Part shown: positions 3,611-32,632 of the stretch, piece after piece
Numbering within the stretch: position 1 is the stretch's first letter
Layout of the letters: each line of letters starts with the position of its first letter
The notes under the pieces: generated by a model
Told to the model about the DNA's origin: nothing
The model's input: the letters and a program-made list of their open reading frames with translations, nothing else
Database searches by the model: none
Origin: Arenicellales bacterium
Lineage (GTDB): Bacteria > Pseudomonadota > Gammaproteobacteria > Arenicellales > JAJDZL01
Assembly: GCA_965202615.1 (NCBI GenBank)
Contig: OZ241837.1
Span: 59,656-123,655, forward strand
Direction: 5' to 3'
Length of the DNA: 64,000 bases
Program-made: the position numbers and the translations under genes

Positions 3611-4290
3611 TACACAACTGCGCAATTCATAGGTGACGGAAATTGAGAGTGCGGCAGCATTCGACCTGATGCACTGGAGACAGGGGGACTAGTTGGTTTC
3701 CAGAATTCGAACGATTCGAGTTATCGAAATTTTCTACCAGGGATTGCCAGCAAAATTCAACCGGTCGAAACTAAGCAGTCCAAATTTGCCGACATCGCAC
3801 ATACCAGAACATTAATATAAATTCTTTTTCGCTGACGGTTTAAAGTTTCTGCAAGAAAAACGGCATTTCTGTTGGCGTGAATTTACAATTCCAGGGGAGT
3901 AGGACAAAAAAATCGAACCATCAAATATTGACCGCCAAGCGGTGTTAATTTCGATGAATTGATGTCGCTTTTTCAAACCCGGAGACATTCGTCATGCACC
4001 GAAAGGATGCCTTGCGACGAATTTCGGAGCCGAGCGGTCAGTTGATTGATCCACATTGGAAGCCGATCGACAAACCCCTTGCCGTAGCCGGATCGGCGCC
4101 TGCGTCATCCGAGCCGGGATTGTCAGGCGATGCGGCTGCGATGAACAGCCTGTGACATTCATTGATCCTGTCGGGCCGCGTACATTGCATTCCGTGAAGT
4201 GATCAATTGCACTTTGCCACTTGAATTTTCTGCCGCTACAACCATATCTGAACGCACATCGTGACCATTCATTATGCCGGAGGACAAAGC

Positions 4291-5217
4291 ATGACCGAAT
4301 ACGACCCCCAGTATAAGTTGCTGGTATCCAATCGCTGGATAATGCAGCAGCTTGTCGAAGCGTTCCTGGATACCTCCGTGACCGACATCATGGACCTTGA
4401 CTCACTTGAGTTGTTTCCGACAGAGTCAATCAGTAAGAATGCAAAATCAAAAAAATTTAAGGTCCGACACAATGACGTGATGTGGAAGATCAGGCTCAGG
4501 GATGGTTCGCAGGCGTATGTGCTGCTGATGGTGGAGGCGCAGTCAAGCGTTGACCCTGCGATGGCGTTAAGAGTCGGAGAATATATTCTAAACTGGTATC
4601 TCTATCTGATGGCGACAGAGGGTCTTGAGGTGTTGCCTCTGATCGTGCCGATGGTCATATACAACGGCGATAGTGCCTGGAACGCTGAGACGCGGCTGCA
4701 CAACATGATCGATGCGCCAGAGGCGTTTCGCAAAATGGGCGTTGTGATGGATGGCGGTTATATCCTGATTGACGAGAAGCGCCTGTATGATTCCGGCCAA
4801 TTGCCTTCGGGCAATATTTTTGCACCGCTCATTACGGCGTTGCACACAAGCAATTTCGGCGAGTTTCGTGACAGTATTAAAATGACGGATCAGATGCTTG
4901 AGAAGTCGGGAGAGAATCAAGAATATATAGAACACGTCAATTCGTTTATACTTAATTTGAAGAGAATTGAGAACGACGTAAGATTGGCACAAATCATTCA
5001 GCAGCGAGGTATGCAGGACATGACAACGACCATTGCGGACTTTGAAAAGCAGATCATGGAGAGAGGCAAGCAGGAAGGTATGCTGGAAAAAGCGCATGAG
5101 TTTGCCAAACGCATGCTTGGCGATGGCAGACCTGAGCAGGAGGTCCGGCGCTATACGGATCTGTCATCCGAAGAAATCCGCCAGATCAAGAGTGAGATTG
5201 AGAATTCCAGGCGCTGA
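4291..5217 (+). CDS. Rpn/YhgA-like recombination-promoting nuclease (PD-(D/E)XK, putative transposase_31)
   Basis: YDPQYKLL N-terminus, RHNDVMWKI...VEAQSSVDPAMALR, P-VIYNG-W, C-terminal GKQEG...AKRML...YTDLS tail; GGAGG RBS before ATG 4291. Confidence 0.85.
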   Translation: MTEYDPQYKLLVSNRWIMQQLVEAFLDTSVTDIMDLDSLELFPTESISKNAKSKKFKVRHNDVMWKIRLRDGSQAYVLLMVEAQSSVDPAMALRVGEYILNWYLYLMATEGLEVLPLIVPMVIYNGDSAWNAETRLHNMIDAPEAFRKMGVVMDGGYILIDEKRLYDSGQLPSGNIFAPLITALHTSNFGEFRDSIKMTDQMLEKSGENQEYIEHVNSFILNLKRIENDVRLAQIIQQRGMQDMTTTIADFEKQIMERGKQEGMLEKAHEFAKRMLGDGRPEQEVRRYTDLSSEEIRQIKSEIENSRR

Positions 5218-9145: not shown

Positions 9146-9790
9146 TTAAGCCCCTAATCCCCCATCAGGGCACAATTGTCCCGATGCCGCTACCGAGGAT
9201 GCCTCCAAGGACTTCAATCGCCGAATGTTGTAACACAGATTCCGCAAGCCGATCCACGCACTAGCTCGCTTCCTACCGCTACAGCGCATGCGATGCTCCG
9301 GCATCTCCATCCGCATCGCACCGAACACATGCTCGACTCTCGAGCGCACCTTCGAATACGCCCGCATCAGGTCAGCCTGCCTCTTCGTCAGCTCTTTCGA
9401 GCGCGTCCCCCTTGTCATTGATGCGCGGCTTGAAACCGAGTTGGCGCAACTCCTCAACCCCATCCTGCGAGCGATACGCACTGTCCGCCCAAACCTGAGG
9501 GTCCCCAGCCGGACTGTCGGGCAGAAACTGCCCGAATCCCTGACTGTCGTGGCGGCTCGACGCCGTCACCTCATACCGGTCAATGAGTTTCGTGTCACGG
9601 TCCGCCGACACATGATTCTTGCAGCCGTAACAGGACTGTCTGCGCTTCTTCGTCCAGCGCGCATCGGTGTCTTTTTGCCGCAACTTGTTCGGCTGCCCCT
9701 TTCGCTCCTTCGGCACCTCGCCCGACTTCACAGTCGCATGGTCCTCGCGACTGTTGCGCTGGCGCGGCACCTCCACGATCAACGAGGCCT
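9146..9790 (-). pseudogene. IS5-family transposase remnant (frameshifted, 5'-truncated)
   Basis: IVEVPRQRNSRE...KDTDARWTKK...YGCKNHVSAD...RHDSQ...WADSAY in one frame, SKVRSRVEHVFG...IGLRNLCYNIRR in another. Confidence 0.85.
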
Positions 9791-9950
9791 TTGAAAATGA
9801 TGCTGGATGGATGACCCGGTTGCTGTCGCGCCGCGGCAACCGCCGGTCAATCATTGAAGGCAGCCTCAGGCGCTTGATCAACTCGGCGAGTGCCACCAAG
9901 CCGGCACGGGCAGTCAAAGTTGGGGAAGTGTCGAATTTTTTTATACAATA
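9790..9950 (-). pseudogene. IS1380-family transposase N-terminal fragment abutting the IS5 remnant
   Basis: TLTARAGLVALAELIKRLRLPSMIDRRLP..SNR resembles the IS1380 N-terminal LTxRAGL...LP-PGSNRGY pattern. Confidence 0.55.
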
Positions 9951-10162
9951 TACACCCGTAGAAACAGCGGTGAGTTTCCAGAACTGGAATCTCGGCCGCA
10001 TTTGTCAGGTTTATGCATGTGCCTGAAATCGGGAGTGTCGAAATCTCGCAAGGCAGGCCATAGGATGGTAAAAGAATGCTACAAGGATGTAGCGCGCGTG
10101 CGGGATTTGGTGCGGACGCTCCCGCATTCGGGCGTGTTGGTGGCCTTGATGTCTGCCATAAT

Positions 10163-13100
10163 GTGACAGCGACCCTGCGGGGGGGGGAACGGGCAAGTTA
10201 GCTCCCTCGACATCGACAGGCTCGCGACGGCCTGACGCCCGCACCGGGCGCTTCCGCCGCCTCTCCCTACTCCTCCCCGTCCTCGCGCTGCTGCTCGGCG
10301 CACTCGGCCTGTTCGCCCCGCCGCCCGCGCATGCCCAAGCACCCGAAAACCCCACGAACTTCCAGGTTCAGATCACCGCTGTAGGGTCATACACGGCAAC
10401 GTGGACCCGCTCGGCCAGCGCCGACTCCTATAGAATCGATGTGCAAAGTTCTTGTAGTGGCAGCTTCCAAACCAGGACGGTGAATGGCGGCACTACCGAA
10501 ACCGCCTCCGGGTCGGGGTTCGGCGGCGCTACTTTTTGTTTCAGGGTTCGGGCGTGCGCGGGCAGTTCATGCAGTGCCGGCACCCAGTGGCTGAATGTCA
10601 ACACGGGCCAAGTGGGCACGTACCCGAACACCGCCGCCAACGCCAACCTGTCCGCCCTGTCGGCGTCGACCCACACGAGTTCGACGGGCACGTTCACGTC
10701 GCTGACGCTCACGCCCTCGACCTTCTCGGCAACCACCACGTCGTACACGGCGTCGGTGGGGAACGCGAGGACGCACCTGAAGATCACCCCGACGGTGGCG
10801 GCCACCGGCGCCACGGTGAAGGTGGGCAAGCAGGGGACCACGCTGGCCACGGTCACCAGCGGCTCGGCGAGCGCCGCCATCGAGCTCTCGGTGGGCGCGA
10901 ACGCCATCACGGTCGAGGTCACCGCCGCGGACACCACCACGAAGAAGACCTACACCGTGACGGTGACGCGGGCTCCCGCCACCGTCTGGTCGGCGACGTT
11001 GAACGTGCAGAACATACCTGGAATTGGGCTGGGTTGTCACAGCAGTGCAACTTCACCAGCACTTCGGTGCACTGATGCTTCTGTACTCTCGGATGACGAT
11101 TTCAGCATAGGTGAACACGATTACCCGATTCATGTGATACGACTTCTTAGCGACGGCACGCTACGGCTGAGATTTGCCTCGAATATTCAAGCTGCCCCGC
11201 TGGCAGGATATAAATTCTGTGTCGGCTCGACTGCGTTTGACATACCGAACAACGCAGGCCAAACCTTGATCTGGTCCAACTCCGGACTCTCCTGGACAGC
11301 CAATACCGAGAAGCAACTCAGCATCGGCACGTCCTGCACTACGCAGACCATGACACCGACGCAGTCCACCGACGCGACCCTGTCCGCCCTGTCGGCGTCG
11401 AGCAGCACGAGCGCCTCGGGCTCGTTCACTTCGCTGAGCATCGGCACCTTCGCCGCGGGCACCACGACCTACACGGTGTCGGTGGCCAATTCCAGAACCC
11501 ACGTGAAGCTCACCCCGACGGTCAACGAATCCAACGCCACGGTGAAGGTGGGCAAGGGGTCGAGCCTCACCACGGTCGCGAGCGGCTCGGCGAGCGGCGC
11601 CATCGCACTCGCGGTGGGCGCGAACGCCCTCAAGGTCGAGGTCACCGCCCAGGACGGCTCCACAACGCAAACCTACACCGTGACGGTAACGCGCGCGCAG
11701 GCGCAGTCCACCGACGCGACCCTGTCCGCCCTGTCGGCGTCGAGCAGCACGAGCGCCTCGGGCTCGTTCACTTCGCTGAACATCGGCACCTTCGCCTCAG
11801 GCACCACGTCCTACTCGGTCTCGGTGGCCAATTCCATCACCCACGTGAAGCTCACCCCGACGGTCAACGAATCCAACGCCACGGTGAAGGTGGGCAAGGG
11901 GTCGAGCCTGACCTCAGTCACCAGCGGCTCGGCGAGCGGCGCCATCGCACTCGCGGTGGGCGCGAACGCCCTCAAGGTCGAGGTCACCGCCCAGGACGGC
12001 AGCACCACGCAGACCTACACCGTGACGGTGACGCGCGCGCAGGCGCAGTCCACCGATGCGACCCTGTCCGCCCTGTCGGCGTCTAGCAGCACGAGCGCCT
12101 CGGGCTCGTTCACTGCGCTGAGCATCGGCACGTTCGCCTCGGGCACCACGACCTACACGGTGTCGGTGGCCAATTCCAGAACCCACGTGAAGCTCACCCC
12201 GACGGTCAACGAATCCAACGCCACGGTGAAAGTGGGCAAGGGGTCGAGCCTGACCACGGTCAACAGCGGCACAGCGAGCGGCGCCATCGCACTCACGGTG
12301 GGCTCGAACGCCATCACGGTCGAGGTCACCGCCCAGGACGGCACCACGACGCAGACCTACACCGTGACGGTGACGCGCCTCGCGCCGCCGACGCAGTCCA
12401 ACGACGCGGCCCTGTCCGGACTGACGGCGACAAGCAGCACGAGCGCCTCGGGCTCGTTCACGACACTGAACATCGGCACCTTCGCCGCGGGCACCACGTC
12501 CTACTCCGCCTCGGTGACCAATTCCGTCACCCACGTGAAACTGACCCCGACGGTGAACAGCTCCAACGCAACAGTGAAGGTGGGCAAGGGGTCGAGCCTG
12601 ACCGCGGTCACCAGCGGTCAGCCGAGCGCCGCCATCGCACTCTCGGTGGGCGCGAACGCCCTCAAGGTCGAGGTCACCGCCCAGGACGGCACCACAACAC
12701 AGACCTACACCGTGACGGTGACACGCGCGCAGGCGCAACAGACGCAGTCCACCGACGCGACCCTGTCCGGACTGATGGCGACAAGCAGCACGAGTTCCGG
12801 GGGCTCGTTCACGACGCTGAACATCGGCACCTTCGCCGCGGGTACCACGTCCTACTCCGCCTCGGTGACCAATTCCGTCACCCGCGTGAAACTGACCCCG
12901 ACGGTGAACCACTCCAACGCAACAGTGAAGGTGGGCAAGGGATCGAGCCTGACCACGGTCACCAGCGGTCAGCCGAGCGTCGCCATCGCGCTCACGGTGG
13001 GCGCGAACGCCCTCAAGGTCGAGGTCACCGCCCAGGACGGCACCACAACACAGACCTACACCGTGACGGTGACACGCGCGTCGCAGCAGACGCAGTCCAC

Positions 13101-14838
13101 CGACGCGACCCTGTCCGCCCTGACGGCGACAAGCAGCACGAGTGCCTCGGGCTCATTCACGACGCTGAACATCGGCGCATTCGCCGCGGGCACCACGTCC
13201 TACTCGGCCTCGGTGGGCAATTCCGTCACCCACGTGAAGCTGACCCCGACAGTGAACCACTCCAACGCCACGGTGAAAGTGGGCAGGCAAGGGACCACGC
13301 TGGCCACGGTCCCCAGCGGCACGGCGAGTTCGGCGATCGCGCTCAGCGTGGGGTCGAACACGCTCGTGGTACGGGTGACGGCCGAGGACACAACCACGAC
13401 CAGGAACTACACGGTCACCGTCGCGCGGCAGACGACGGCGACCGAAGCGGAATCGGCGGCGCTGAACCTGTCGCTGGACGGTCTCTCGCGCACGCTGCTG
13501 AGCCGCGCTGTCGGTGTCATCGGCGAGCGCATCGCGGCCTCGGATGAACCGGCGCCGGCAATGCCGGAGTCCGCCGACGCTGACGCCTGGATGTCGGCGA
13601 CCGGCTTGCGGTTAAGCCCGGCCGCCACCTCGCCGAAGACGGATTCGTGGCGGGACCCGCATGCGCAGAACCCGGACTGGATAACGGGCGACCTCAGCTG
13701 GAAGCGCTCTTTTGCGTTCTCGCTGGATGCGCCGAACGGCAGTCGGTCGCAGACGGACGATTCGCAATGGAGGGTGTGGGGCACCGGCGACCTGCAGAAG
13801 TTCAGGCGCAAGCAGACATCGACCACCAGCCAGGGTGGCTGGAACACCGTCTATCTGGGGCTTGAGCGGCGCGTTGCCGGACACTGGCTGGGCGGACTGG
13901 CGCTTGCCTCCGGTCGCGGCAAGGCCGATTACAGCTACAGTGAGGGGGCGGCTGAAGGTCGTCTCGAGTTGCGTCTCAAAGCGGCTTATCCGTATTTCAG
14001 AACCGTCACTGCAGAAGGTTTCGAGATCTGGGCGATGGCCGGTGCCGGCCAAGGCCGCGCGACCAACTCAATCAACGCTCAGGAGCCGCACCGCGGAAGA
14101 TTGCACATGCGCATGGCGGCGGCGGGATTGCGCGTGAAGATGGCGGATTGGCCCTCGGTGCAGCTGTCGGCGCTGGCCGATGCGAGTGCCGAGACACTCA
14201 TCATCCGCGGCGAGCAGTCGCTGGCGAACCTGAAGTCGTCAGTGCGGCGGGTGCGGGCCGGACTGGAGCTGTCCGGCCATCAGGGCCAGTGGTCACCCTA
14301 TATGCGGCTGAACGTACGCCATGAGGGCGGCGGCTTGTCGGCTGCCGGACTGGAGAGCGAGGCCGGCGCACGCTATTCACACGGACGCCTGGGCATGGAT
14401 GTGCGCATGCGGTGGATGAGACTCAAGGGCAGCGGGAAATATCGGGAATCGGGCGCCGCTGCAACGCTGCGGATCAGTCCGGCGGCGGACGGCACCGGCC
14501 TGAGCCTGACGCTGACACCAAGCCGGGGGCGCCCGGACGGGACCGACCTGGTGTGGGGCGCGAGTCCCCTGCCTTCGGAAACGCCTGCCGGAGCCGGCAA
14601 CGGGCTGGCGATGACGGTCCAGGTCGGCTACGGCATCCGGCCCTTGCAGCTGCCGGGGCTGGTAACGCCGACACTCGGGTATGCGCGCGGCGCACAGGGT
14701 GACGAACGGCTGCGGGTCGGCGCGGATTACGCGACCGAACTGCCGTATGATCTCAGGCTCGGATTCGGACTGGAACGGCGCAAAACTCTCGGCAATACCG
14801 ACCGGAACATCCGCCTGGATGCGCAAATGCGCTGGTGA
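10163..14838 (+). CDS. Large surface adhesin/autotransporter-like protein: signal peptide, FN3-like domain, 7 cadherin-like beta-sandwich repeats, C-terminal beta-barrel; start out of frame at a G9 tract
   Basis: Frame is open from 10162 (upstream of the ORF-track start at 10441) and encodes RFRRLSLLLPVLALLLGALGLFAPPPAHA|QAPENPTNF..WTR..SYRI. Repeats read STDATLSAL...VTAQDG-TTQTYTVTVTR. C-terminus ends in aromatic W (MRW). GC is much higher than the flanks. Confidence 0.8.
10179..10187 (+). repeat. G9 homopolymer, candidate slipped-strand phase-variation switch
   Basis: GTG 10163 (and ATG 10076) lie in a frame that stops at TAG 10199; one extra G joins them to the signal-peptide frame. Confidence 0.6.
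11362..13430 (+). repeat. Six tandem 342-351 bp coding repeats (cadherin-like domains); a seventh, more diverged copy at about 10636-10970
   Basis: Units begin CAGTCCA(C/A)CGA at 11362, 11704, 12046, 12394, 12745 and 13093. Confidence 0.95.
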
Positions 14839-15814: not shown

Positions 15815-18220
15815 ATGGCAACAACAGCCGCAGTTTCCAAGAAACCGGTCCTTGAATCGTCACTCTGGAATGCGATTCCGCATTTCCTGCCGATTACCGT
15901 TTTCCCCCTGATTTTCGCCGCTGCAATTTACGGAGGCTGGTGGCTCCTGTTGCCCTTTGTTTTTTTCGGGATAGTCGGCCCGCTGGATCTTGCCTTCGGC
16001 AATGAAACGCGAAACATGGACCCAAAGACCACGTCCAAAGAACGCTTGATCTGGTACAGCATACCAGTGTGGCTATGGGCATTGCTCTGGCCGGTGACGT
16101 TCGTGTTCACGCTGTGGCAAATATTCATGGGCGGTCATCTGGTCTGGTGGGAGTCCGCATTGCTCGCGTTCATTCTGGCGGTTGAAGGTCAGGCGATATT
16201 CATCGTCGGACACGAACTGATTCACCGCCGAGCGCCATGGGAGCGATATATTGGCGAATTCCTGCTCGCTTCAGGTTCCTATCCGCACTACGCGACAGAA
16301 CACTTTTATATCCATCACGCGTATGCCGGCACGCCGATGGATGTTGGTTCCGCACCGAAGGGACTGACATTCTGGCGCTATTTTCCGCGCGAACTGGTGA
16401 ACAATCTGCGCCATTCATGGATTCTGGTTCGCAAGCGACTGGCAAGGCGTAAACTGCCAATCTGGCACTATAGCAATCCATTTTGGCGCTACAGCACTGA
16501 AATGGCTGCATGCTACCTTTTTGTCTTTTTTATGGGTGGGTGGTGGTCTGTTCTGATTTACATAATTTTGTGTCTCGGGATCGTCATGTCGATGAAGATC
16601 AGCAATTACATCCAACACTACGGCTTGCGCAGGATTCGTCTGCCGCATGGTCGATTCGAAACAGTCAAGCCACATCATGCGTGGACCGCCAGCCAGCGCT
16701 TCAGTGGCTGGATGTTTTTCAATATGCAGCGTCACGCGGATCACCACATGACGGCCAGTCGCATTTATCCCCTGCTGCAGTACTATGACGAAACTGAATC
16801 ACCGCAGCTGCCCGGAAGCTACGGCAAGATGTTTAACCTGGCGGTGCGGCCCAAACGCTGGTTCGAAACGATGGACCCGTTGGTTGACCAGTGGCGAGCC
16901 CGCTTTTACCCGGAAATCGAGGACTGGAGCGCCTACGATAGCGAGATTTCAGAAACGTATCCGGAAGCATTCGATACGATCGTCGAGATTTTTGAATCTT
17001 CACCCCGTATGGCTAAAGCAATAGAAAAACAACCGTATTTGCTTGAGAGCCTGCAAAGCCAGGAATACACAGATCTCGAAGTCCCTAAAGGATACAGTCA
17101 GGATTCTGAAATGGAGAGAATTGCCCAGAGCGGGCTTGTACGCGTCTACTGGACTTACGAATTCGCAGTTGCCGAAATGAAACAGCAACTCAATGAGGTT
17201 CCTGCACAAGATTCTGCAGATGCCGCAGAAATCATACGTTTCTGGATGAACGACAAGGTGTTTCAAATCGGCATGCACACCATACGCGGCTACCTGTCAC
17301 CGCTCGAAGCACAGGTTGCGTTCTCGAATGTTGCAGAAGCCTCTGTCGCCTCCATCCTCAGTGCGGTCGTGGAAGACAGTGTCGATCGTTTCTATCAATC
17401 CGATGAAGGCGCAATCGCAGCGATTGCACTCGGTGACCTGGCCACCAAAGAGGTGGTTCCCGGTACACAGGTCGAAATCGTTTACCTTTGTGAAAACGCT
17501 CTTGAAGACAGCCATAGAGACTTGTGCAATCGTTTTCACGAGGCCATCAGGATTTTGACGCAGGACAATCTGCTGTTTACTCCGCTTTCAGACGACCGAC
17601 AGGAACCTCAAATTTTTGCTTTTGATGAATTCGTGTCGCAAAACCGTGCCACGCGCTCGACTCGTGAACTGCTGGACCTGGCCCGCGCGCGGTGTATCTT
17701 CACAAGAAATGGTTCCGAGTTCGAACAGAGATTTGATGAGGCGCGCCGCGATATCCTGCTGAAAGGGTTGACTTACGATTCGCTTGTTGCAGAATTGAGT
17801 GCAACGACTGCAACCGCTGGCGAATCTGATCTTTCTGTCGGTCTCACTGCGGAACGGAAATTGGAACAAATCGAGCGCGGCGCAAGGTACCTGCAATTGA
17901 AGCACATCTCCAGCATGCCCGAAGATCTGGATTCCTGCAATGCCATGGCGGTTATTAAAGCAGTAAAATCAAAAGACCTGATCCCGGATGCAGTCGCGGA
18001 GCAACTGATTGAGGCAACTCAACTGTGGCAGAATCTAAGGGGTATCAACAGAGTGGTTCTGGACGAAGGCACTGATGTAGAAAACGCGACCGGCAGTGTC
18101 AAAAGGACGGTCGCAAAAGCCTGCAAGTCGACCGATTTCGCCACTCTGAACGAGACAGTTGAAAAAACAATCGTCACCACCGAAAGCGCATTGGCGGCAG
18201 TATTTGGACCGTCCGCTTGA
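15815..18220 (+). CDS. AlkB-type membrane diiron monooxygenase/desaturase fused to a degenerate GlnE-like nucleotidyltransferase domain
   Basis: TM helices plus His boxes HELIH, EHFYIHH, NYIQHYG, QRHADHH. C-terminal half has FQIGMH..G..SP.EA..AFSNVAEA and ALGDLATKEVVPGTQVEIVYL, matching the GlnE GKLGxxE..xSDLD region but without the aspartates. Confidence 0.75.
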   Translation: MATTAAVSKKPVLESSLWNAIPHFLPITVFPLIFAAAIYGGWWLLLPFVFFGIVGPLDLAFGNETRNMDPKTTSKERLIWYSIPVWLWALLWPVTFVFTLWQIFMGGHLVWWESALLAFILAVEGQAIFIVGHELIHRRAPWERYIGEFLLASGSYPHYATEHFYIHHAYAGTPMDVGSAPKGLTFWRYFPRELVNNLRHSWILVRKRLARRKLPIWHYSNPFWRYSTEMAACYLFVFFMGGWWSVLIYIILCLGIVMSMKISNYIQHYGLRRIRLPHGRFETVKPHHAWTASQRFSGWMFFNMQRHADHHMTASRIYPLLQYYDETESPQLPGSYGKMFNLAVRPKRWFETMDPLVDQWRARFYPEIEDWSAYDSEISETYPEAFDTIVEIFESSPRMAKAIEKQPYLLESLQSQEYTDLEVPKGYSQDSEMERIAQSGLVRVYWTYEFAVAEMKQQLNEVPAQDSADAAEIIRFWMNDKVFQIGMHTIRGYLSPLEAQVAFSNVAEASVASILSAVVEDSVDRFYQSDEGAIAAIALGDLATKEVVPGTQVEIVYLCENALEDSHRDLCNRFHEAIRILTQDNLLFTPLSDDRQEPQIFAFDEFVSQNRATRSTRELLDLARARCIFTRNGSEFEQRFDEARRDILLKGLTYDSLVAELSATTATAGESDLSVGLTAERKLEQIERGARYLQLKHISSMPEDLDSCNAMAVIKAVKSKDLIPDAVAEQLIEATQLWQNLRGINRVVLDEGTDVENATGSVKRTVAKACKSTDFATLNETVEKTIVTTESALAAVFGPSA

Positions 18221-18329: not shown

Positions 18330-20633
18330 ATGAGTCCACGCGAACGCCTGGAATCGATTGCCGCTAAAAATGGCGAGATAAAACAACCGATACTGACACC
18401 GCATCTTGAATTTCGTCCGATCGGTGACGGACAGGTGCTCCTGGTCTCCGAGACGTTCAATACCCTTTTGCACGGGCAGGTTTACCCGGATCTCCTGGCA
18501 CTGCTTGTCGGTGGGCGTTCGACAAATGAAATCGTCGAATCGCTATCGACAGCACATGCAAAGACGGAAATAAAAGCAGCATTGACCTCAATGGCCGCCA
18601 AGGGATACATCGTTTCCGGCGAATACGAGATGGATCAAGGCAACGCGGCATTTTGGTCTTCACTCGGTGTCCCTCCATGCCAGGTCGAGGAAAAATTGTG
18701 CTCTGCAGCGGTGGCAGTTCACGGTGATGACGATAACCGGCTCAAAGCGAGTCTGGAAACCAAGGGGATCAGTGTCAGTTCGAAACAGGCAGCCCTTTCG
18801 ATTTACTTCTCAAACAACTATCTCGACAGTCGGCATCATGCAGTCAATCGGCAACATATCGATTCAGGTACCCCTTGGCTATTGATTCAGCCGCAAGGCA
18901 TGCATCCATTGTTTGGCCCTGTCTTTGAACCGGCTGATGAAGGGCCTTGTTGGGCGTGCCTCGCGTACCGTATCGGCAATAACAACGAGGTCCATTCCTT
19001 TGTCCGAAATTTTTGCGGTGAAGCAGCTGCTTTCCGACCCATTGCGGCCGACCCCGCTGCGCTGGATGTAATCTACGGGATCATTTCAATCGAGATCGCC
19101 AAATGGCTGGTGCTGGGTGATGCAGCTGCGCTTGGTCACCAAGCATTCTCGCTTGATGTGGCAGATATGAAAAGCCGACACCACCCCGTCATGCGTCGGC
19201 CGCAGTGCGAAGTCTGCGGCGACGAGGCGCTTAGAAACAAAAATCGCCCGGCGCTTCCGATACGCTTGCAGGCGAGCCCGAATAATCTAAGCAACAGTGG
19301 CGGCTCTCGTGCAATTCCGCCCGCTCAAACGCACGAGCGATATCGGCATCTGATCAGCCCGGTCAGCGGAATTGTTTCCTGGGTCACGCGCACGAGCCCT
19401 GAAGCTGATCCGTGGTTGCATGTTCACTGGGCCGGCAGCAACCTGGCGCTCAGAATCAGGAGCCTCAGTTCGCTGCGGCGCAGTTTACGGAGCAAATCCG
19501 CAGGCAAAGGCAACACCGCGGAACAGTCCGAGGTCAGCGCGCTGTGCGAGGCAATCGAACGTTATTCCGGTGCTTTCCACGGCGACGAGATACGCAGCCG
19601 GAAACGATATTCCGAGTTTTCAATGGACGGGGACGGGCAGGCGATTCACCCAAACGATGTTCAGCTGTTCAGCGACTGGCAATTCGCGCATGCCGATCAA
19701 ATCAATGCTCGCGGCCACCCGTATAACCTCGTTCCACCGCGATTCGATCCGGACCGAGAAATCGAATGGTCCCCGATATGGTCATTCACAGAGAATAGAC
19801 ATCGCTATTTGCCGACCGCGATGCTTTATGGCATGACACCGGAGCAGCGCGGCAACGCGGGACTTTGGGCAGACTCCAACGGCTGTGCCGCGGGGAATAC
19901 ACTTGAAGAGGCGATATTACAGGGATTTTTCGAGCTGGTCGAACGCGATGCGTTCGCGCTTTGGTGGTACAACCGGATTTCTCGACCCGAAGTTCACCTG
20001 GAAAGCTTTGGCGACGAGTACCTGGCTTGTGCACAGGACTACTACCGCAAGTATGATCGAGACCTGTGGGTGTTGGACATTACCAGCGACCTCGGCATAC
20101 CGACATTCGTCGCGTTGTCCCATCGAACCGACGGTGATGCTCAAGACATCATTTACGGTGCAGGCGCACACACTGACCCGAAAATCGCTGTGTTGCGCGC
20201 CGTGTGTGAAATGAACCAGTGCCTGACGTGGGTGCCTCACCCTGGCAAAGAATCTTCAGGATATGGAGTCGACGATCCAATGTGCCTATGGTGGTGGAAG
20301 AATGGAAAACTCGAGGATCACCCTTTTCTCACCCCATCCCGTGTAATCGAGCCACTCAAATTTTCAGACTATGCGGTCCCAAGTACTGACGATTTGTACG
20401 ACGAAGTGAAACGGTGTCAGGAGTTGGTCGAAAACAAGGGCATGCATTTGTTGGTTCTTGACCAGACGCGCCCCGATATCGGAATGCCTGTCGTACGCGT
20501 GATCGTGCCTGGACTGCGGCATTTTTGGCCTCGATTCGCACCGGGACGCCTGTTTGATGTGCCGGTTGAAATGGGCTGGCGGCAAACCGCAATCGAGGAG
20601 CAAGACCTGAACCCCGTCCCCGTGATTGCCTAG
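18330..20633 (+). CDS. srpC: Fused RRE/E1-YcaO cyclodehydratase (TOMM C-D fusion), SrpC-like
   Basis: GPCWACL and RRPQCEVCG in the E1-like part; SALCEAIERYS, SNGCAAGNTLEEAILQGFFELVERDA, RAVCEMNQ; Pro-rich C-terminus LNPVPVIA typical of azoline-forming YcaOs. Confidence 0.92.
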   Translation: MSPRERLESIAAKNGEIKQPILTPHLEFRPIGDGQVLLVSETFNTLLHGQVYPDLLALLVGGRSTNEIVESLSTAHAKTEIKAALTSMAAKGYIVSGEYEMDQGNAAFWSSLGVPPCQVEEKLCSAAVAVHGDDDNRLKASLETKGISVSSKQAALSIYFSNNYLDSRHHAVNRQHIDSGTPWLLIQPQGMHPLFGPVFEPADEGPCWACLAYRIGNNNEVHSFVRNFCGEAAAFRPIAADPAALDVIYGIISIEIAKWLVLGDAAALGHQAFSLDVADMKSRHHPVMRRPQCEVCGDEALRNKNRPALPIRLQASPNNLSNSGGSRAIPPAQTHERYRHLISPVSGIVSWVTRTSPEADPWLHVHWAGSNLALRIRSLSSLRRSLRSKSAGKGNTAEQSEVSALCEAIERYSGAFHGDEIRSRKRYSEFSMDGDGQAIHPNDVQLFSDWQFAHADQINARGHPYNLVPPRFDPDREIEWSPIWSFTENRHRYLPTAMLYGMTPEQRGNAGLWADSNGCAAGNTLEEAILQGFFELVERDAFALWWYNRISRPEVHLESFGDEYLACAQDYYRKYDRDLWVLDITSDLGIPTFVALSHRTDGDAQDIIYGAGAHTDPKIAVLRAVCEMNQCLTWVPHPGKESSGYGVDDPMCLWWWKNGKLEDHPFLTPSRVIEPLKFSDYAVPSTDDLYDEVKRCQELVENKGMHLLVLDQTRPDIGMPVVRVIVPGLRHFWPRFAPGRLFDVPVEMGWRQTAIEEQDLNPVPVIA

Positions 20634-20780
20634 GTATTCGTAGATGATGTGACGGGCGCCAGCTAGCTCCTGGTCTGATCATTGGCTTCCGGAACATCGG
20701 CTTGCATTGAATCAGAAAAAGGCATACCGGGGAATCAAGGTAAAATCTGTAATCAAAATAGTCATTGTGAATCGATTTCA

Positions 20781-21590
20781 ATGCGCATTCGGATTGCCTC
20801 AATCAGCACCTTAGTTGTGGCGCTGATCTGCTTGTACTCTACCCATTCGACTCTCCTTGCTCAACAACAGACACCTGAAGAGAAGGGGCTGGCGATTGCG
20901 CGTGAAGCCAGCGCGCGCAATGACGGTTTTGGGGACTTCACCGCCCAGATGACGATGATTCTGCTTGACCGGCTAGGTCAGGAGACGGTCCGTCAGATGC
21001 GCTTCAAGGTGCTGGAGGTTCAAGGGGATGGTGACAAGAGTCTGTTTGTGTTCGATCAACCGAAAGACGTCAAGGGGACCGCCTTGCTGACCCATGTTCA
21101 CATCAACTCACCGGACGACCAGTGGCTGTATCTGCCGGCCCTCAAAAGAGTGAAGCGCATCAATGCCGCGAAGCGTTCGGGATCATTCATGGGCAGCGAA
21201 TTTTCCTACGAAGACATGAGTTCTCCAGAGGTGGATGAATTCACTTATAAGTATCTTCGCGACGAGTCATGTGGGGAGTTGACTTGCACCGTGACCGAGC
21301 AATTCCCCCTGGACAAGAAATCGGGCTACAGTCGCAAGGTCGTGTGGCAAGATTCGGTTGAGCTTCGTACCTGGAAAATGGAACTTTACGATCGAGGGGG
21401 ATCCCATCGAAAAACGCTCACGTTTGCAAACTATCAACAATATCTGGATCAGTACTGGCGAGCGGGAGAGCAGACGATGGTCAATCACCTGACCGGTGCG
21501 AGCACGGTACTCGAATGGACCGATTTCAAGTTCCGCACCAACCTTGACGAAAGAGAATTCACACAAACCGGACTGAAGCGAGTGCGCTGA
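20781..21590 (+). CDS. Outer-membrane lipoprotein-sorting (LolA-like) protein
   Basis: Signal peptide; F-QPKDVKGTALL, DDQWLYLPALKRVKRI, FMGSEFSYEDM. Confidence 0.88.
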   Translation: MRIRIASISTLVVALICLYSTHSTLLAQQQTPEEKGLAIAREASARNDGFGDFTAQMTMILLDRLGQETVRQMRFKVLEVQGDGDKSLFVFDQPKDVKGTALLTHVHINSPDDQWLYLPALKRVKRINAAKRSGSFMGSEFSYEDMSSPEVDEFTYKYLRDESCGELTCTVTEQFPLDKKSGYSRKVVWQDSVELRTWKMELYDRGGSHRKTLTFANYQQYLDQYWRAGEQTMVNHLTGASTVLEWTDFKFRTNLDEREFTQTGLKRVR

Positions 21591-21674
21591 TGCAACTTGG
21601 CGGCCTGTCCAGTAACCCCCATTTCTCCATGCCCAGTAAAATACTGTTATCAACACTTGTAGAGAGAATGTGCA

Positions 21675-22952
21675 ATGATAGCGCCGGGCAGCAAATCCCT
21701 GAAAAAGATCGCTGTGATCGGACGAGGAACAGCGGGGTCCTTGGCAGCTGCCAACGTATCTCGTTTACTCTCCAATAACGACTGCGAATTACACCATATC
21801 TACGACTCTCGCATCCCCATCATTGGTGTTGGCGAAGGGAGTTGGCCAAGTCTCGTTCAACATTTGCAGCACCTGACGAATCTACCTGACGATACGGTTC
21901 AACAGAACTTGAACGCAACCCGTAAATACGGTGTCGCGTTCGAAGGATGGGGCGAGAACAAACACGACTTCATCCACTATTTCATGCCCCGGGATAAGTC
22001 CTACGCCTACCATTTGTCTGCCGATCTCATGGGAGACCTCCTGCAAGAGTGCACGCACGCCCAACACATCGACGCGCAGGTGCTGAATATCACCCGAGTC
22101 GAAAACGGTGCGCAGGTGGAATTTGAAGGCCGGATTCCAGAGCGCTATGACCTGGTTTTTGATGCTCGCGGGTTCCCCAAAGAACTCGACTCGAAACAGC
22201 ATATCGACATCAATTTCATCCCCACCAACACGGCTGTCATCCGACGTTGTCCGGCAATTGTCAAGGCAGAGCAGAACGGGGGACCGGTTATTCAACACAC
22301 CTACACCCGTGCAGTGGCGCGTCCGCACGGATGGATATTTGTGATTCCACTGACGGTGCACACATCCTATGGGTACATCTTCAACGGCGATGTATCCACT
22401 CTTGCCGATGTCGAATCGGATTTTGACGCGTTTTTTGAAGCCGATGGCGTGGTGGAATTTGAGAAACGGGCCGTGATTCAATTCCCGAATTTCATTCATC
22501 GCCAGATATACGATGGAACGGTTGCCCGCATCGGCAACGCGGCGGCTTTCATGGAGCCACTCGAAGCAACCGCAATCGTATCCGCCCAGTTGCAGATCGG
22601 CATGGTGCTTCAAACCCGATATCACCGCCCGATAGAATATCTTGAGCGCGATGCGCCAATGGTCAATCGATTTCTGGTCAACAACATGGTCTGCTACGGC
22701 CTGTTCGTCGGCTGGCACTATTGCCGCGGCTCCATTTTCGAAAGCGAATTTTGGCGTCGTGCCCGTGACCACGTCTGGCCGCAACACCGTGAAGCCGCGA
22801 TCCCTGAGCTTGTCGATTGCGATGCACTTCGCAAGTTCGACGAGATGATCAAACTGATCGGCCAGCCGAACCTCGACTCGGCGGACTTGAACAGGATGTG
22901 CGGAGTTCCCGCTACCAGTTACACCCAAATGTCCCAAGGCCTCGGTTGTTGA
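21675..22952 (+). CDS. srpI: Flavin-dependent tryptophan-halogenase family enzyme (peptidyl brominase SrpI-like)
   Basis: GRGTAG, IGVGEGS, catalytic-Lys region ATRKYGVAFEGW, GWIFVIP (WxWxIP variant), FMEPLEAT; clustered with the LCCCW precursor. Confidence 0.85.
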   Translation: MIAPGSKSLKKIAVIGRGTAGSLAAANVSRLLSNNDCELHHIYDSRIPIIGVGEGSWPSLVQHLQHLTNLPDDTVQQNLNATRKYGVAFEGWGENKHDFIHYFMPRDKSYAYHLSADLMGDLLQECTHAQHIDAQVLNITRVENGAQVEFEGRIPERYDLVFDARGFPKELDSKQHIDINFIPTNTAVIRRCPAIVKAEQNGGPVIQHTYTRAVARPHGWIFVIPLTVHTSYGYIFNGDVSTLADVESDFDAFFEADGVVEFEKRAVIQFPNFIHRQIYDGTVARIGNAAAFMEPLEATAIVSAQLQIGMVLQTRYHRPIEYLERDAPMVNRFLVNNMVCYGLFVGWHYCRGSIFESEFWRRARDHVWPQHREAAIPELVDCDALRKFDEMIKLIGQPNLDSADLNRMCGVPATSYTQMSQGLGC

Positions 22953-22977
22953 GTCGCGCATTGCAGGCAGTTGCGCA

Positions 22978-25293
22978 ATGACAAATGAACAATTCGCAAA
23001 GCGATTTATCGAACGAGTGCTCGCTGCTCGGTGGTGGGTTATTCTAGCCACGCTGGCCTTGGTTGCAATAGCCGCCAGTGGTATTGTCAAGCTCGAATTC
23101 TCCGCCAACTATCGAATTTTTTTCGACGACGACAATCCGCAGCTGCTGGCGCTGGAAAAGCTGGAACAGACTTATGGCAAAAATGAAAACATCGTATTCC
23201 TGATTGTTCCGCACGACGGCGACGCCACCTCGCAAAACGCGCTGTCGGCCGCAACCTGGCTGACAGACGCCGCTTGGTTTGCGCCCTACGCGAGACGCGT
23301 TGACTCGCTCGCCAATTTTCAGCACACAACCGCCGAGGGTGACGATCTTTACGTGCGAGATCTCGTGGACCCGCAAGAACTGGACCGGCCCGAAGTGCGG
23401 TTGCTGGTTCGTGAAATCGGGTTGTCGGACCCGCGTATTGCTGGCAGTGTTCTGGGCAGGAACGGCGACGTGAGTGTTGTAAACGTCACAGTTGAACTGC
23501 CGCAGGAAGGTCTTTTGGACGCGGTCGCCGAGGTTTCCCAGTTTGCGAGATCACTGGCTGCAGAGGCGGAACAGCAGTTTTCCGGCATCGATCTTCGCAT
23601 CGTCGGTACGGTCATGATCAACCAAACCTTCGTGGAAGCTTCGATCAGCAGCCAGAAGATTTTTCTGCCGGTCAGTCTCGTGCTCATGGCCCTGATCCTT
23701 GGAATCCTTACCCGCAGCTGGGCCGGGGTTCTGTCAACAGGAATGGTCATCGTGTTTTCCATTCTTGCATCTATGGGTCTTGGCGCATGGGTTGGCTTGC
23801 CCTTCTCCCCGCCTATTTCACCGGCACCGACGATCGTGCTGATGATCGTCGTGGCCAACTGCGTACACCTGCTTGTGGCATTGCGACAGCGTCTGCAAGC
23901 GGGTGAACCCAAGCACGATGCCATCGTCGAGGCGATTAAGCTTAACCTGTACCCGATTTTCCTGGCAAGTCTGACGACAACGCTTGGATTTTTGAGCATG
24001 AACTTCTCCGAAGTGCCGCCTTATCGACATCTCGGCAACTTTGTCGCCTTCGGCATCGTCTCCTCTTTCATTCTCTCCGTCACATTTTTGCCGGCCCTGC
24101 TTTCACTTCTTCCCGCGGGTTCTGCCAAGAAACGCCAGCTGCGCGGGCCAAAAATGCGCCTGATTGCCGAGTTTTCCATGCACCACCGGAAGTTCCTGTT
24201 TTGGGGATGGCTGGTGTTTGTGATTGCAATGATTGCGGCCATTCCGCGCAACGAACTTAACGATGTTCTTGTGCATTTCTTCAACGAGAGCGTTGAGTTT
24301 CGACAGGACACCGATTTCATGGACGAGCACCTGAGCGGAAACACGCTGCTGGAGTATTCGCTGCGAGCATCAGCCGAAGGGGGAGTGACGGACCCGCTTT
24401 TTCTTGCCGAGGTTTCGAGCTTTGCCAAGTGGTATCGTCAGCAACCGCCTGTGCGCCATGTATCGGTTATTACCGATACCTTTCGGCAACTCAACATGAG
24501 CATGCATGGCGATGACCCGGATTTCTACCGACTGCCGGAAAGTCAGGAACTGACAGCGCAGTATCTGCTCCTTTATGAACTCTCGCTGCCCGAGGGTTTG
24601 AATTTGAACAACCAGATAGACAGGTCCCGTTCGGCCACGCGGGTGTCGGTCTCTGCCGAGACACTTGATTCGCAAGAACTGCTTGAACTGAATGCGCGGG
24701 CCGAAGCCTGGTTGAACGAAAACGCCACGCATGTCGCCAGCGTCAACAGCACCGGACCTGCAGCGCTGTTCGCCTACATTGGCCAACGCAACATTCGCGC
24801 GATGCTGATCGGAACGGTGGTCGTACTCATCGCCATTTCCACGATTCTCCTTTTCGCCTTGCGATCACTGCGAATCGGTTTGATCAGCATCATTCCCAAC
24901 TTGATTCCCGCAGCGGCAGGCTTTGGAATCTGGGGGCTGACGGTTGGACAGGTGGGACTGTCGCTATCTGTTGTCGTGGCCATGACCGTCGGCATTGTTG
25001 TGGATGATACGGTGCATTTTCTCAGCAAGTATCTCCGTGCGAGACGCGAATACGGCCGGAGTGTTGAACAAGCGGTGTTTTATGCCTTTGAAACTGCGGG
25101 GCAAGCCCTGTTCACGACGACGATCGTTTTAGTTGCGGGATTTCTGATTTTCGCATTTTCTCCATTCATCCCGACCGCGCAGGTCGGAGTGTTGACCGCA
25201 ATGATCATTGCCTTTGCGCTCGTCGCAGACCTGACACTCCTGCCTGCATTGCTAATTACGATAGACCGGGGTTCCAGGTCGCCTAAGCAATAA
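22978..25293 (+). CDS. MMPL/RND-family transporter
   Basis: Two repeats of periplasmic domain plus TM bundle; SLTTTLGFLS, GIVVDDTVHFL, ALVADLTLLPALL. Confidence 0.9.
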   Translation: MTNEQFAKRFIERVLAARWWVILATLALVAIAASGIVKLEFSANYRIFFDDDNPQLLALEKLEQTYGKNENIVFLIVPHDGDATSQNALSAATWLTDAAWFAPYARRVDSLANFQHTTAEGDDLYVRDLVDPQELDRPEVRLLVREIGLSDPRIAGSVLGRNGDVSVVNVTVELPQEGLLDAVAEVSQFARSLAAEAEQQFSGIDLRIVGTVMINQTFVEASISSQKIFLPVSLVLMALILGILTRSWAGVLSTGMVIVFSILASMGLGAWVGLPFSPPISPAPTIVLMIVVANCVHLLVALRQRLQAGEPKHDAIVEAIKLNLYPIFLASLTTTLGFLSMNFSEVPPYRHLGNFVAFGIVSSFILSVTFLPALLSLLPAGSAKKRQLRGPKMRLIAEFSMHHRKFLFWGWLVFVIAMIAAIPRNELNDVLVHFFNESVEFRQDTDFMDEHLSGNTLLEYSLRASAEGGVTDPLFLAEVSSFAKWYRQQPPVRHVSVITDTFRQLNMSMHGDDPDFYRLPESQELTAQYLLLYELSLPEGLNLNNQIDRSRSATRVSVSAETLDSQELLELNARAEAWLNENATHVASVNSTGPAALFAYIGQRNIRAMLIGTVVVLIAISTILLFALRSLRIGLISIIPNLIPAAAGFGIWGLTVGQVGLSLSVVVAMTVGIVVDDTVHFLSKYLRARREYGRSVEQAVFYAFETAGQALFTTTIVLVAGFLIFAFSPFIPTAQVGVLTAMIIAFALVADLTLLPALLITIDRGSRSPKQ

Positions 25294-25581
25294 CTATGCA
25301 GATTCAGGCATTTTGAAAGCAGGACTTATACGACCGCGAAATGCTGACAACTGGAAGCGGTTGTGACTTGAATTTCGGCAACCTTGAGCCACTTCTTCCG
25401 TTGCAGTGCATGCGGCTTAGCCAAACCTGGCCGGAATTTGGAATATTGACCTTGGTCGGACTGACCTGAGCGCAATTTCAGGAAAGCGCCAATCAGTCGG
25501 CCAAGAGATGCCCGCAAAATTCTCCCTTTTTGCCAATGCTTATAATCTATTCATACAAATTATCAGCACTTTGACACGACT

Positions 25582-26133
25582 GTGTTCAACAACCCGTTAA
25601 ATTCTTTCCATGACACAGTTGCCGAAGCCAAGGACGAGCGTGAGCAACTTGACCGATTACTGACTATCTCCACACCGCGGGAACGTCTGCTTATCGTTGT
25701 TATCGCGATTTTTCTTGCCCTCTTCACAGCATGGCTCTTGCTCGGGAATGCCGCCCGCAGCCTGGCGGTTGACGGTGTCGTGGTCGGGCCCGGTGACAAC
25801 CTGTCAGAGAACCGCCCGGCTGTGCAGGTGCTTATCGCAAGCAAGACAGAGGATGTATCGCATTTCAAGGTCGGAACGTCGGCACAAATAGAACTGAGCC
25901 TGTCCGACGGCAAAGTTAAAACACTGGTTGGAGAGGTCATTTCCATAACCGCTGCACACTTGTCTGAGGATTTGGCCGCGTTTGACTCCTCGGTACCGTT
26001 GTCTTTGCACCGGATAAACATGTCAATTGATGAAATCCTTGATTTTGCTTCAATTTCTGGCCTGAAGTGCCGGATTGTCTTTCAACTTGAAGAACAATCT
26101 CCAATCTCTGTGCTGCTGAATCGGCAAAATTAA
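25582..26133 (+). CDS. Short NHLP-system secretion accessory (HlyD/MFP-like) protein
   Basis: EQLDRLLTISTPRERL plus TM helix and C-terminal SPISVLL are typical of NHLP secretion proteins; the central coiled coil is absent. Confidence 0.65.
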   Translation: MFNNPLNSFHDTVAEAKDEREQLDRLLTISTPRERLLIVVIAIFLALFTAWLLLGNAARSLAVDGVVVGPGDNLSENRPAVQVLIASKTEDVSHFKVGTSAQIELSLSDGKVKTLVGEVISITAAHLSEDLAAFDSSVPLSLHRINMSIDEILDFASISGLKCRIVFQLEEQSPISVLLNRQN

Positions 26134-26174
26134 GTTGCTCCGAACACCCCTGGTGTAGCAGGGATCATGCTATC

Positions 26175-31285: not shown

Positions 31286-31324
31286 TCCGACCCTAAGACA
31301 TGGCCAACAGAAGCAGGCTTTTCA

Positions 31325-32620
31325 ATGAAAAAAACGGTTGACAGCGTGGAGACTCTGATATCAAGGGCTAGTAAAGATGACAATTTTCGCGAACGGCTTC
31401 TAGCGAATCCAAAAGAAACGATCGAGGCAGAACTCGCAATCAAGCTGGACGACGATCACAAAGTCTTCGTACACGAAGAAACCGACGCAGCAATACATGT
31501 GGTGCTTCCGCCGCGCAGCAAATACAGTGAGTCTGAACGGCAGGAGGCCAAAACCGGGGCCTCGTCGCTTGAATTTCTTCGAAAAACACTCTACGACCCG
31601 GCACCGCCCCTGCGTCCCCCCGCACCGGAACAGGTTGGAGCGCCGGCGAACATTCCGAGCCCCGCGGCACTCGTCAAGGCAGCCACAGAATGCGTCCGCC
31701 GCGGTCTTGTTTTCCTGGAATCCGCCATTGACGAGAACGGGGCCTGGCACTGCATTCGTTTCAACACCGCTGATGCGAACATTCCGCGGCATTTTGAAAA
31801 GCCTCCTTTCATTTCAGCTTTTTGCGCATTGGCCCTGGAAAGCAGCAAACAAGCGCAAGCTAAAGCCCTGTGCGCCGCCACCAAGGCTTATCTTGCAAGC
31901 ACCATTGAATATCCCGGATTGTGGCGCTACTACCGCCATTTGCCCCAGGACCTTGACAGTACAACACTCTGTTCACTAGTCATCAAGACCCACCCTTGGA
32001 TACTGCTGCGAAGAAACGTTGCGCCGATCTTGGCGAACCGAAACGAGGAAGGCTGTTTCTCGACCTGGATTTTGGACGAAGACGAACCTGATGTGGTGTC
32101 AACATTTCGTATCGAAGCTGATCCTGTCGTTAATGCGAACGTCATCGCCTACCTCGGCGACCGACCGGAAACCAGGGATGCACAGCAATGGCTGAAAAGG
32201 TTGCTCGAAAAAGGCAGCCTCGAAAACACATCCAAATGGTACCCCGATACAGTCGCAATCTGCCATGCAATCAGCCGTGCCGTCAAACTCGCGCGACCCG
32301 CTCTCGATGAACTCCCCCCGATACTCGTTGATCACATCCAAGGCATGTACAGCGAAAAAGCACAGTTTGGCAACATTCTGCAGACTGCGCAGGCCGTATC
32401 GGCGCTCTACAACATCGGGAGTCTTGAAACCATCGACACCAAACGCCAAGTGGAAAGACTCATCGGTTCGCAACGAGACGATGGAAGCTGGCCTGAGCTT
32501 CTCGCGTTTGGCGACCAATCGATGAAATGGGGTACGTTCGGAAATATCGGACATGGCTCCGAATCGGTGACGACTGCATTTTGCATTGAAGCTTTGGAAC
32601 GACTTGTTGAGACACTGTAA
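31325..32620 (+). CDS. NHLP-leader-like domain fused to a class II terpene cyclase/prenyltransferase-squalene oxidase-like domain
   Basis: Residues 1-78 align without gaps to the precursor leader. The remainder has GLWRYY..LPQDLDST (DxDD-like), DPVVNANV, QW-like SQRDDGSW and GSESVTTAFCIEAL. Confidence 0.7.
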   Translation: MKKTVDSVETLISRASKDDNFRERLLANPKETIEAELAIKLDDDHKVFVHEETDAAIHVVLPPRSKYSESERQEAKTGASSLEFLRKTLYDPAPPLRPPAPEQVGAPANIPSPAALVKAATECVRRGLVFLESAIDENGAWHCIRFNTADANIPRHFEKPPFISAFCALALESSKQAQAKALCAATKAYLASTIEYPGLWRYYRHLPQDLDSTTLCSLVIKTHPWILLRRNVAPILANRNEEGCFSTWILDEDEPDVVSTFRIEADPVVNANVIAYLGDRPETRDAQQWLKRLLEKGSLENTSKWYPDTVAICHAISRAVKLARPALDELPPILVDHIQGMYSEKAQFGNILQTAQAVSALYNIGSLETIDTKRQVERLIGSQRDDGSWPELLAFGDQSMKWGTFGNIGHGSESVTTAFCIEALERLVETL

Positions 32621-32632
32621 TCGGGATATTGC

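Follow-up and report, generated by a model that had tools for sequence, protein, structure and literature searches.

In the genome of an Arenicellales bacterium, a large adhesin gene is separated from its likely start codon by a run of nine guanines. As sequenced the gene is OFF; it is probably a functional contingency locus and belongs to an opa-like set. The preferred explanation, to which a probability of about 0.7 is given, is slipped-strand phase variation with the gene mostly OFF. Translation would begin at ATG 10076, and the nine G's would terminate the product at 41 residues; the gain of one G would yield the full protein of ~1587 residues. Most cells would carry the OFF form, and with 21 repeat-bearing autotransporter genes (17 OFF and 4 ON in the consensus) the population would display few adhesins at a time. 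The tract, the reading frames, the paralog set, the intact gene bodies and the alleles of other length are observed; in this model the start codon, the promoter, reversible switching, surface display, the adhesive function and a role in the interaction with host or phage are inferred. An earlier note on the same DNA had proposed a phase-variable adhesin that is OFF as sequenced, and the evidence below supports that proposal as an interpretation.

The tract, its leader and the predicted product

The window is the whole stretch of DNA that was analysed, 64 kb in length. The features that matter for the adhesin gene are the following.

9146..9960, - strand: broken insertion-sequence remnants, pieces of a DDE transposase (Pfam DDE_Tnp_1, paralog alignment, tblastn to other copies)
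9906..10075, + strand: upstream region, presumed promoter and 5' UTR (common to all six paralogs)
10062..10069, + strand: Shine-Dalgarno-like site ahead of ATG 10076 (duplex of -7.8 kcal/mol with the anti-Shine-Dalgarno sequence)
10076..10178, + strand: leader of 34 codons that runs from the likely start ATG up to the tract (open in 6/6 paralogs; the protein P0002 begins with this leader)
10154..10162, + strand: extended -10-like motif (aligned with homolog loci L085 and L088-L090 and with the sixth paralog)
10179..10187, + strand: G9 tract, putative slipped-strand switch (length 9 is out of frame)
10188..10335, + strand: basic N-region, hydrophobic h-region (from 10261) and A-H-A cleavage-like site (a module common to homologs in other phyla)
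10199..10201, + strand: TAG, terminator of the 41-aa OFF product (OFF peptide P0003 on three contigs in a protein collection)
10336..10617, + strand: FN3-like domain (ESM Atlas neighbours, weak PDB matches; Pfam negative)
10636..13428, + strand: seven beta-sandwich repeats of cadherin-like type, the first followed by one unrelated domain (PF12733, E 1.6e-111, seven stretches)
13670..14838, + strand: C-terminal autotransporter-like beta-barrel with a Trp end (ESM Atlas, 0.96 to PF03797 clusters; Pfam; paralog dN/dS)

The tract is the sole G/C run of at least 7 in the window, and its nine bases place it among the hypermutable repeats (G/C runs of at least 8); the available part of a published account sets the threshold of hypermutability for G/C tracts at 7-8 (PMC6321876). 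The long frame behind it opens at 10162, directly after TAA 10159-10161, and closes at TGA 14836-14838, a span of 1558 aa. Its first ATG, GTG or TTG is GTG 10441, which lies 3' of the signal peptide. ATG 10076 and GTG 10163 share another frame, which ends at TAG 10199-10201 and gives a 41-aa peptide when read from the ATG; one additional base in the tract fuses this frame to the 1558-codon frame. Translation thus bears out the architecture described in the earlier note: a frame from 10162 lacking a canonical start before the signal peptide, a G9 read from either upstream start into TAG 10199, and a junction of the two frames on the gain of one G. In the protein collection, OFF peptides of 41 aa occur on 3, 4, 1 and 1 contigs, four of them in the bacterium's own genome.

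Translation probably starts at ATG 10076 rather than GTG 10163. The ATG is preferred because it has a strong Shine-Dalgarno site, because the changes in the leader are mostly silent in its frame, and because GTG 10163 is GTA in two paralogs. The Shine-Dalgarno duplex at the ATG beats 90% of 906 long-ORF starts and is equalled by 3% of 241 random ATGs; the corresponding value for GTG 10163 is -1.5 kcal/mol. The two had been offered together as candidate starts, GTG 10163 foremost: the ATG has held up, and the GTG is rejected for its missing Shine-Dalgarno site and its replacement by GTA in 2/6 paralogs. Leader substitutions are silent in 6/10 cases in the ATG 10076 frame and in 3/10 and 2/9 in the other two frames, a modest excess over the ~25% expected (p 0.02-0.09), and the leader of a second adhesin family shows no excess of silent changes (16 silent, 38 replacement). 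A long leader is normal for the family, since 11 repeat-free homologs in genome G047 carry long in-frame N-regions.

Upstream of ATG 10076, the search for sigma-70-like consensus promoters in 9906..10075 returned none. Insertion-sequence remnant DNA from ~9906 onward is present in all six paralog cassettes; the remnants at 9146..9960 presumably belong to an IS1380/IS5-like element. That the leader is itself the end of an insertion sequence was considered and rejected: the DNA upstream of the transposase is different in its other copies. The leader DNA was found in 0/40 other genomes, and its exact motif had no match in the JGI metagenomes.

The product is predicted to be an autotransporter-like adhesin, one member of a genome-wide set. 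Its N-terminus has the basic region, the hydrophobic stretch (19 residues, starting at 10261) and the A-x-A site (A-H-A at 10327-10335) of the Sec signal peptide of a type Va autotransporter, called by eye from the translation and hydropathy. The ESM Atlas neighbours of the next domain are FN3 clusters at 0.92-0.93, and its weak PDB matches include FN3con, tenascin and chitinase A1; a Pfam search of the region gave no FN3 match. The signal peptide and FN3 start that the earlier note saw in the 10162 frame therefore stand in part, the first by inspection and the second by Atlas and PDB similarity though not by Pfam. The barrel scores E 2.6e-5 against Pfam PF03797, with 24.5 bits under a cut-off of 26, and an AlphaFold2 fold from the single sequence was uninformative (pLDDT 33). 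The cadherin-like and FN3-like repeats suggest surface display and adhesion.

The GC content of the adhesin gene is 66%, against 50% for the genome. Named genomes of Bryobacterales, Longimicrobiales and Ca. Poriferihabitaceae contain its modules as well, which suggests horizontal exchange. A sponge habitat is likely, to judge from these module-sharing genomes and from the matching domain mix of a sponge symbiont already described (PMC6506613, available in part); runs labelled as sponge metagenome share only 0.15-0.23 of words and were left out as habitat evidence. The RecA of the genome scores ~68% against Piscirickettsia, Legionella and Xanthomonas and 67% against Methylobacterium, a spread that does not point to one class.

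Other genes in the window include two YhgA-like (PF04754) transposase/nuclease genes, at 4261-5217 (+) and 49653-50720 (-), and one at 15815-18220 (+) for an 801-aa protein in which an alkane-monooxygenase-like domain is fused, by eye, to an adenylyltransferase-like domain. The stretch 18330-33751 is presumably a ribosomal-peptide-pathway-like cluster, with a YcaO-like gene, a halogenase-like gene, an RND-type exporter, two peptide ABC transporters and a nitrile-hydratase-leader-like fusion.

Copies, alleles and the genome-wide repeat set

The tract has nine G's, with no indel, in contigs from six public runs (X1-X6) belonging to four studies. Contigs with at least 31 letters on each side of it occur in X1, X3 and X4 (three studies), and all show an ungapped G9. 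The X3 contig differs at one position over 367 bases from the adhesin copy's own flank; the bridging contigs of X1 and X4 carry the flank of a paralog and represent the family majority. Contigs from X1, X2, X5 and X6 have no indel at the tract, and the X2 contig is identical to the adhesin copy over 10160-10222. Among contigs from the six runs that span the tract, none has G8 or G10; because contigs lose rare variants, this establishes G9 as the majority form, not as uniform. X1 is possibly the source sample, which leaves three other studies, and the run technology is not on record. X5 also has a loose contig end at 10171 with a variant 8-nt unit, from another host's copy of the sixth paralog.

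Repeat length varies among related genes. Copies of the same family with shared flanks carry G9 four times and G8 once, and the sixth paralog, likewise out of frame, has an 8-nt unit repeated ~7 times at the tract position. Elsewhere, one tandem pair of copies has C8 and C9 and, separately, of two twin copies the one with C9 is in frame and the one with C8 is not. Read-through of the tract is seen in two proteins from other assemblies. P0002 (1469 aa) starts with the leader, runs on via three glycines into the signal peptide, and has ~90% identity over the N-terminal domains; it is the one match of 39 candidates in a search for the leader peptide among longer proteins. P0006 (241 aa, on a 6.9-kb contig) shows the same read-through via three glycines and an apparent later loss of frame. 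Both are gene calls from assemblies of unknown accuracy, and a sequencing error is possible in either. The length variation in homologous 5' ends that the earlier note named as a check is thus present, as G8, G9 and octamer forms among paralogs and as read-through in P0002 and P0006. As expected of a contingency locus, length differs among copies and alleles, with in-frame and out-of-frame forms both present.

The gene bodies are intact. Each of the six family copies has 1321-1623 open codons and zero internal stops, and barrel dN/dS is 0.25-0.65 in 15/15 paralog pairs: another mark of a contingency locus, a reading frame kept under purifying selection (6/6 copies).

The genome (G000) is a single contig of 4.25 Mb. 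It contains 209 G/C runs of length 6, none of length 7 (~24.5 expected under geometric decay) and 28 of at least 8 (~3.3 expected). Nineteen of the 28 have length 9, a peak that resembles Campylobacter and is on that account counted in favour of phase variation. Twenty-five of the 28 lie either in the 5' part of genes for predicted secreted proteins or in the leader that these genes share; they trace to roughly seven leader types and do not count as 25 separate events. Autotransporter genes account for twenty, all in the 5' part; two are in the leader of the second family (one ahead of an interrupted gene, one ahead of a SecB gene), and other secreted-protein genes contain three. An integrase, a regulator-like gene and a peptidase-like fragment contain the remaining three. 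Labels of tract-bearing genes other than SecB were assigned by eye. When the octamer of the sixth paralog is included, 21 autotransporter genes have a 5' repeat; the 4 that are in frame do not differ significantly from one third (p 0.12). The second family has four further barrel matches without a tract, one of which is in frame from the family ATG; the start of this family is fixed by that tract-less member. The gene at G000:2629038 is in frame from its family ATG. Loss of mismatch repair as the cause of the long runs was rejected: the MutS and MutL frames are intact here and throughout the genomes searched (5/5).

Several further loci in the genome are of interest in their own right. The SecB gene (PF02556, E 2e-36; locus L083, G000:C1:333701-334347, - strand) lies behind a second-family leader with G10, one base out of frame, and is possibly a phase-variable export chaperone. 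At G000:C1:594597 a (GGCTC)x9 repeat in a restriction-modification-like gene (type IIG-like by eye) apparently shifts the frame and makes it a candidate phase-variable methylase. The repeat-protein region at G000:C1:2238282-2279299 (+) has a C9 in its signal peptide and successive frames of 3430, 1040, 2284 and 7199 codons: it may be a single giant adhesin whose frame is broken, or a series of genes. A tract-less second-family autotransporter at G000:C1:2188112 has its leader interrupted by a stop codon, and a G11 stands at the end of an integrase gene at G000:C1:2201407.

In many congeners, G9 runs equal or exceed G7 runs in number (59 vs 23 in G043, which has 103 G/C runs of at least 8). Of the first 30 runs of G043 by position, 23 lie ahead of signal-peptide-like frames, and the bases needed to join the frames are 0, +1 and +2 in 7, 8 and 8 cases, by an automatic best-Shine-Dalgarno rule that is able to choose a wrong ATG. 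Pairs of genes with the same leader, one ON and one OFF, are present in G043 and G020. The habit is uneven across the genus: in four other congeners, sampled at 7-8 runs each, the signal-peptide-like share is 1/8, 1/8, 2/7 and 5/7. G9 runs also occur in frame inside ordinary transporter genes, and the long runs of G008 are mostly in mobile or defence DNA. A long G run by itself is no proof of a switch, because the excess of G9 is genus-wide and extends to transporter genes and mobile DNA; G runs seem to expand where they are tolerated in the genus. At the G043 loci L112-L141 and further sites, tracts front small secreted proteins (~160-250 aa), which together form a very large group of candidates for phase variation. 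At G003 locus L045 a type III Mod-like gene (so labelled by eye) is present twice, with G10 in frame and with G9 out of frame. C11-C13 runs at G008 loci L011, L012 and L015 differ in length among copies of a group II intron-like element. Outside the genus, a repeat stands ahead of the signal peptide in 3/5 sponge-type homolog loci (eight copies of a 5-nt unit, C13 and C36), and all four homolog copies in G051 have tracts of C19-C36.

Alternative explanations

If translation starts at ATG 10076, the repeat separates the start codon from the functional coding sequence; the internal -10-like motif at 10154-10162 is also present. The first alternative builds on this motif: the tract would lie in a 5' UTR behind an internal promoter and tune expression, with a non-AUG start at ACG 10189 and the G run as ribosome-binding site. 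The G run does pair with the anti-Shine-Dalgarno sequence at -9.9 kcal/mol ahead of this ACG, and in homologs from other bacteria the repeat is often part of the 5' UTR. In 4/7 metagenome loci (L085, L088, L089 and L090) a TATAAT or TACAAT box is followed by a 7-nt repeat, an in-frame ATG and the same signal module, the repeat being untranslated. The window motif aligns with the box in these loci, and the sixth paralog keeps a perfect TATAAT in a layout that resembles the L085 type with its ATG lost. However, an in-frame downstream start of the hmw1A type is missing: no ATG, GTG or TTG precedes the signal peptide in 5/5 G-tract copies, the in-frame ACG right behind the tract belongs to the window copy only, and the other four have no near-cognate start before the hydrophobic region either. 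The -35 to -10 spacer is apparently 16 nt shorter than in the homologs, a comparison based on a short alignment and suggestive only; ATG 10076 has its strong Shine-Dalgarno site, and tracts lie clearly within coding sequence in other families of the genome. The cassette in this genome is read as a coding switch, and the motif as a likely relic of the promoter that precedes the 5'-UTR repeat in other bacteria's homologs, because the other four G-tract copies lack a usable start and the promoter spacer appears shortened. Expression tuning from the 5' UTR is on this evidence unlikely for the window copy. The refuting condition named in the earlier note, translation from a non-canonical in-frame codon behind the tract, keeps a small probability here through ACG 10189 and the -10-like motif.

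A somewhat less probable proposal is that the copies are effectively fixed OFF: silent recent acquisitions that are decaying or serve as recombination donors, with the G run grown by a genus-wide mutational bias. The constancy of G9 throughout contigs from four studies is consistent with this, as are the insertion-sequence debris upstream, the divergent GC content and the long G runs in mobile DNA of congeners. Fixed silence is harder to reconcile with six frames of 1321-1623 codons that are free of stops and have dN/dS below 1, with read-through alleles elsewhere, and with in-frame members of the set in the same genome.

In a third, improbable scenario, G9 is the standing state and a little full protein is made by recoding, either by RNA-polymerase slippage with the gain of one G or by a ribosomal shift of -1. 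The majority of out-of-frame tracts in G000 have length 9 exactly and require +1 (10/19 scored runs), and G9 is stable across hosts. A fixed rule of +1 at exactly 9, suggested by G000 and the first 12 G043 sites, failed when 30 sites were considered. Programmed recoding implies a constant length and offset; instead, offsets of 0, +1 and +2 and lengths of 8-13 occur in G000 and G043, with the even 7/8/8 spread in G043, and one copy has an 8-nt tandem repeat in place of the run. The shared +1 is explained by shared leader ancestry.

The weakest alternative, a true G10 under-called in the homopolymer, could appeal to long reads (implied by the single-contig assembly, with run technology not on record), to the drop from 34 A/T runs of 9 to one of 10 and to the single G/C run of 10, but is already largely refuted and very improbable, given the ungapped G9 in the bridging X1, X3 and X4 contigs and the shorter X2, X5 and X6 contigs, the G11 and G13 called in frame within the same assembly, the in-frame G10 and C10 in a congener and the 11/11 tract-less G047 homologs in frame. 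The frame shift of the sister copy is no homopolymer miscall either, because its repeat is an 8-nt unit. The caution in the earlier note that a homopolymer error would look the same accordingly finds no support in the majority G9 of the six runs or in the octamer copy, also out of frame.

Scope and comparison with known systems

Slippage is a textbook mechanism, established for adhesion genes of B. breve, Neisseria and Campylobacter, and the candidate locus would add another case of it. A broader reading is tentative, and held at somewhat less than even odds: that a genus of likely sponge symbionts practises large-scale, pathogen-style surface variation with OFF as the default. In the present adhesin family, a 5'-UTR dimmer seen in other phyla would have turned into a coding switch once its downstream start was lost and an upstream start was recruited. 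Its scale, put forward just as tentatively, would be ~20 repeat-switched autotransporters in this genome and up to ~100 G/C tracts in a congener, most of them fronting secreted proteins.

The FN3 and cadherin-like surface proteins of sponge symbionts are usually counted as genes present. If they are mostly out of frame and come ON at random in subpopulations, host recognition and phage evasion would have to be read differently, and counts of adhesin genes would describe the library that single cells draw from, not what is displayed on the surface. Gene callers shorten such genes and lose their signal peptides: the called ORF here begins at 10441.

A literature search, with subscription journals mostly outside its scope, had among its top matches no paper that describes phase variation by repeats in a sponge symbiont, and terms for repeats or phase variation have 0 occurrences in PMC11410982. 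The sponge symbiont 'Ca. Synechococcus feldmannii' has the same mix of FN3, cadherin-like and autotransporter domains, and 'phase variation' has 0 occurrences in the available main text of that paper (PMC6506613).

The comparisons that follow draw on portions of the cited papers. In Haemophilus influenzae hmw1A the repeat stands just behind the adhesin promoter, as in homologs L085 and L088-L090, and tunes expression without a frame shift (PMC12721329); it matches the 5'-UTR alternative and not the model preferred for the window copy. In Bifidobacterium breve UCC2003, replication slippage at intragenic G tracts joins the frames of the sortase-pilus genes bbr_0113 and bbr_1889 (PMC9187656). As at the present locus, a G tract parts a start ORF from the main adhesion ORF in a non-pathogen whose reference sequence is out of frame. 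B. breve differs in being a Gram-positive gut commensal with two pilus loci and a secretion signal in the first ORF (PMC9187656); the present set, known from sequence alone, comprises ~20 autotransporters with the tract ahead of the signal peptide.

Campylobacter capD likewise has a poly-G tract in autotransporter coding sequence, in genomes with 20-30 tracts each and a peak at G9 (PMC7168839, PMC6321876), length 9 accounting for 53% of tracts (PMC6321876); the lineage and the passenger domains here are different. Campylobacter capC adds a caution: its upstream tract fails to explain its inactivation, and gene decay can mimic switching (PMC7168839, PMC6321876). The opa genes of Neisseria share the overall organisation, multi-copy outer-membrane adhesins at scattered loci (up to 11 for opa) with a frame-shifting repeat in the region coding for the leader peptide (PMC3960869). 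The opa repeats are CTCTT pentamers and the product is a small barrel protein (PMC3960869), whereas the genes described here combine G/C homopolymers, and one octamer, with large modular autotransporters.
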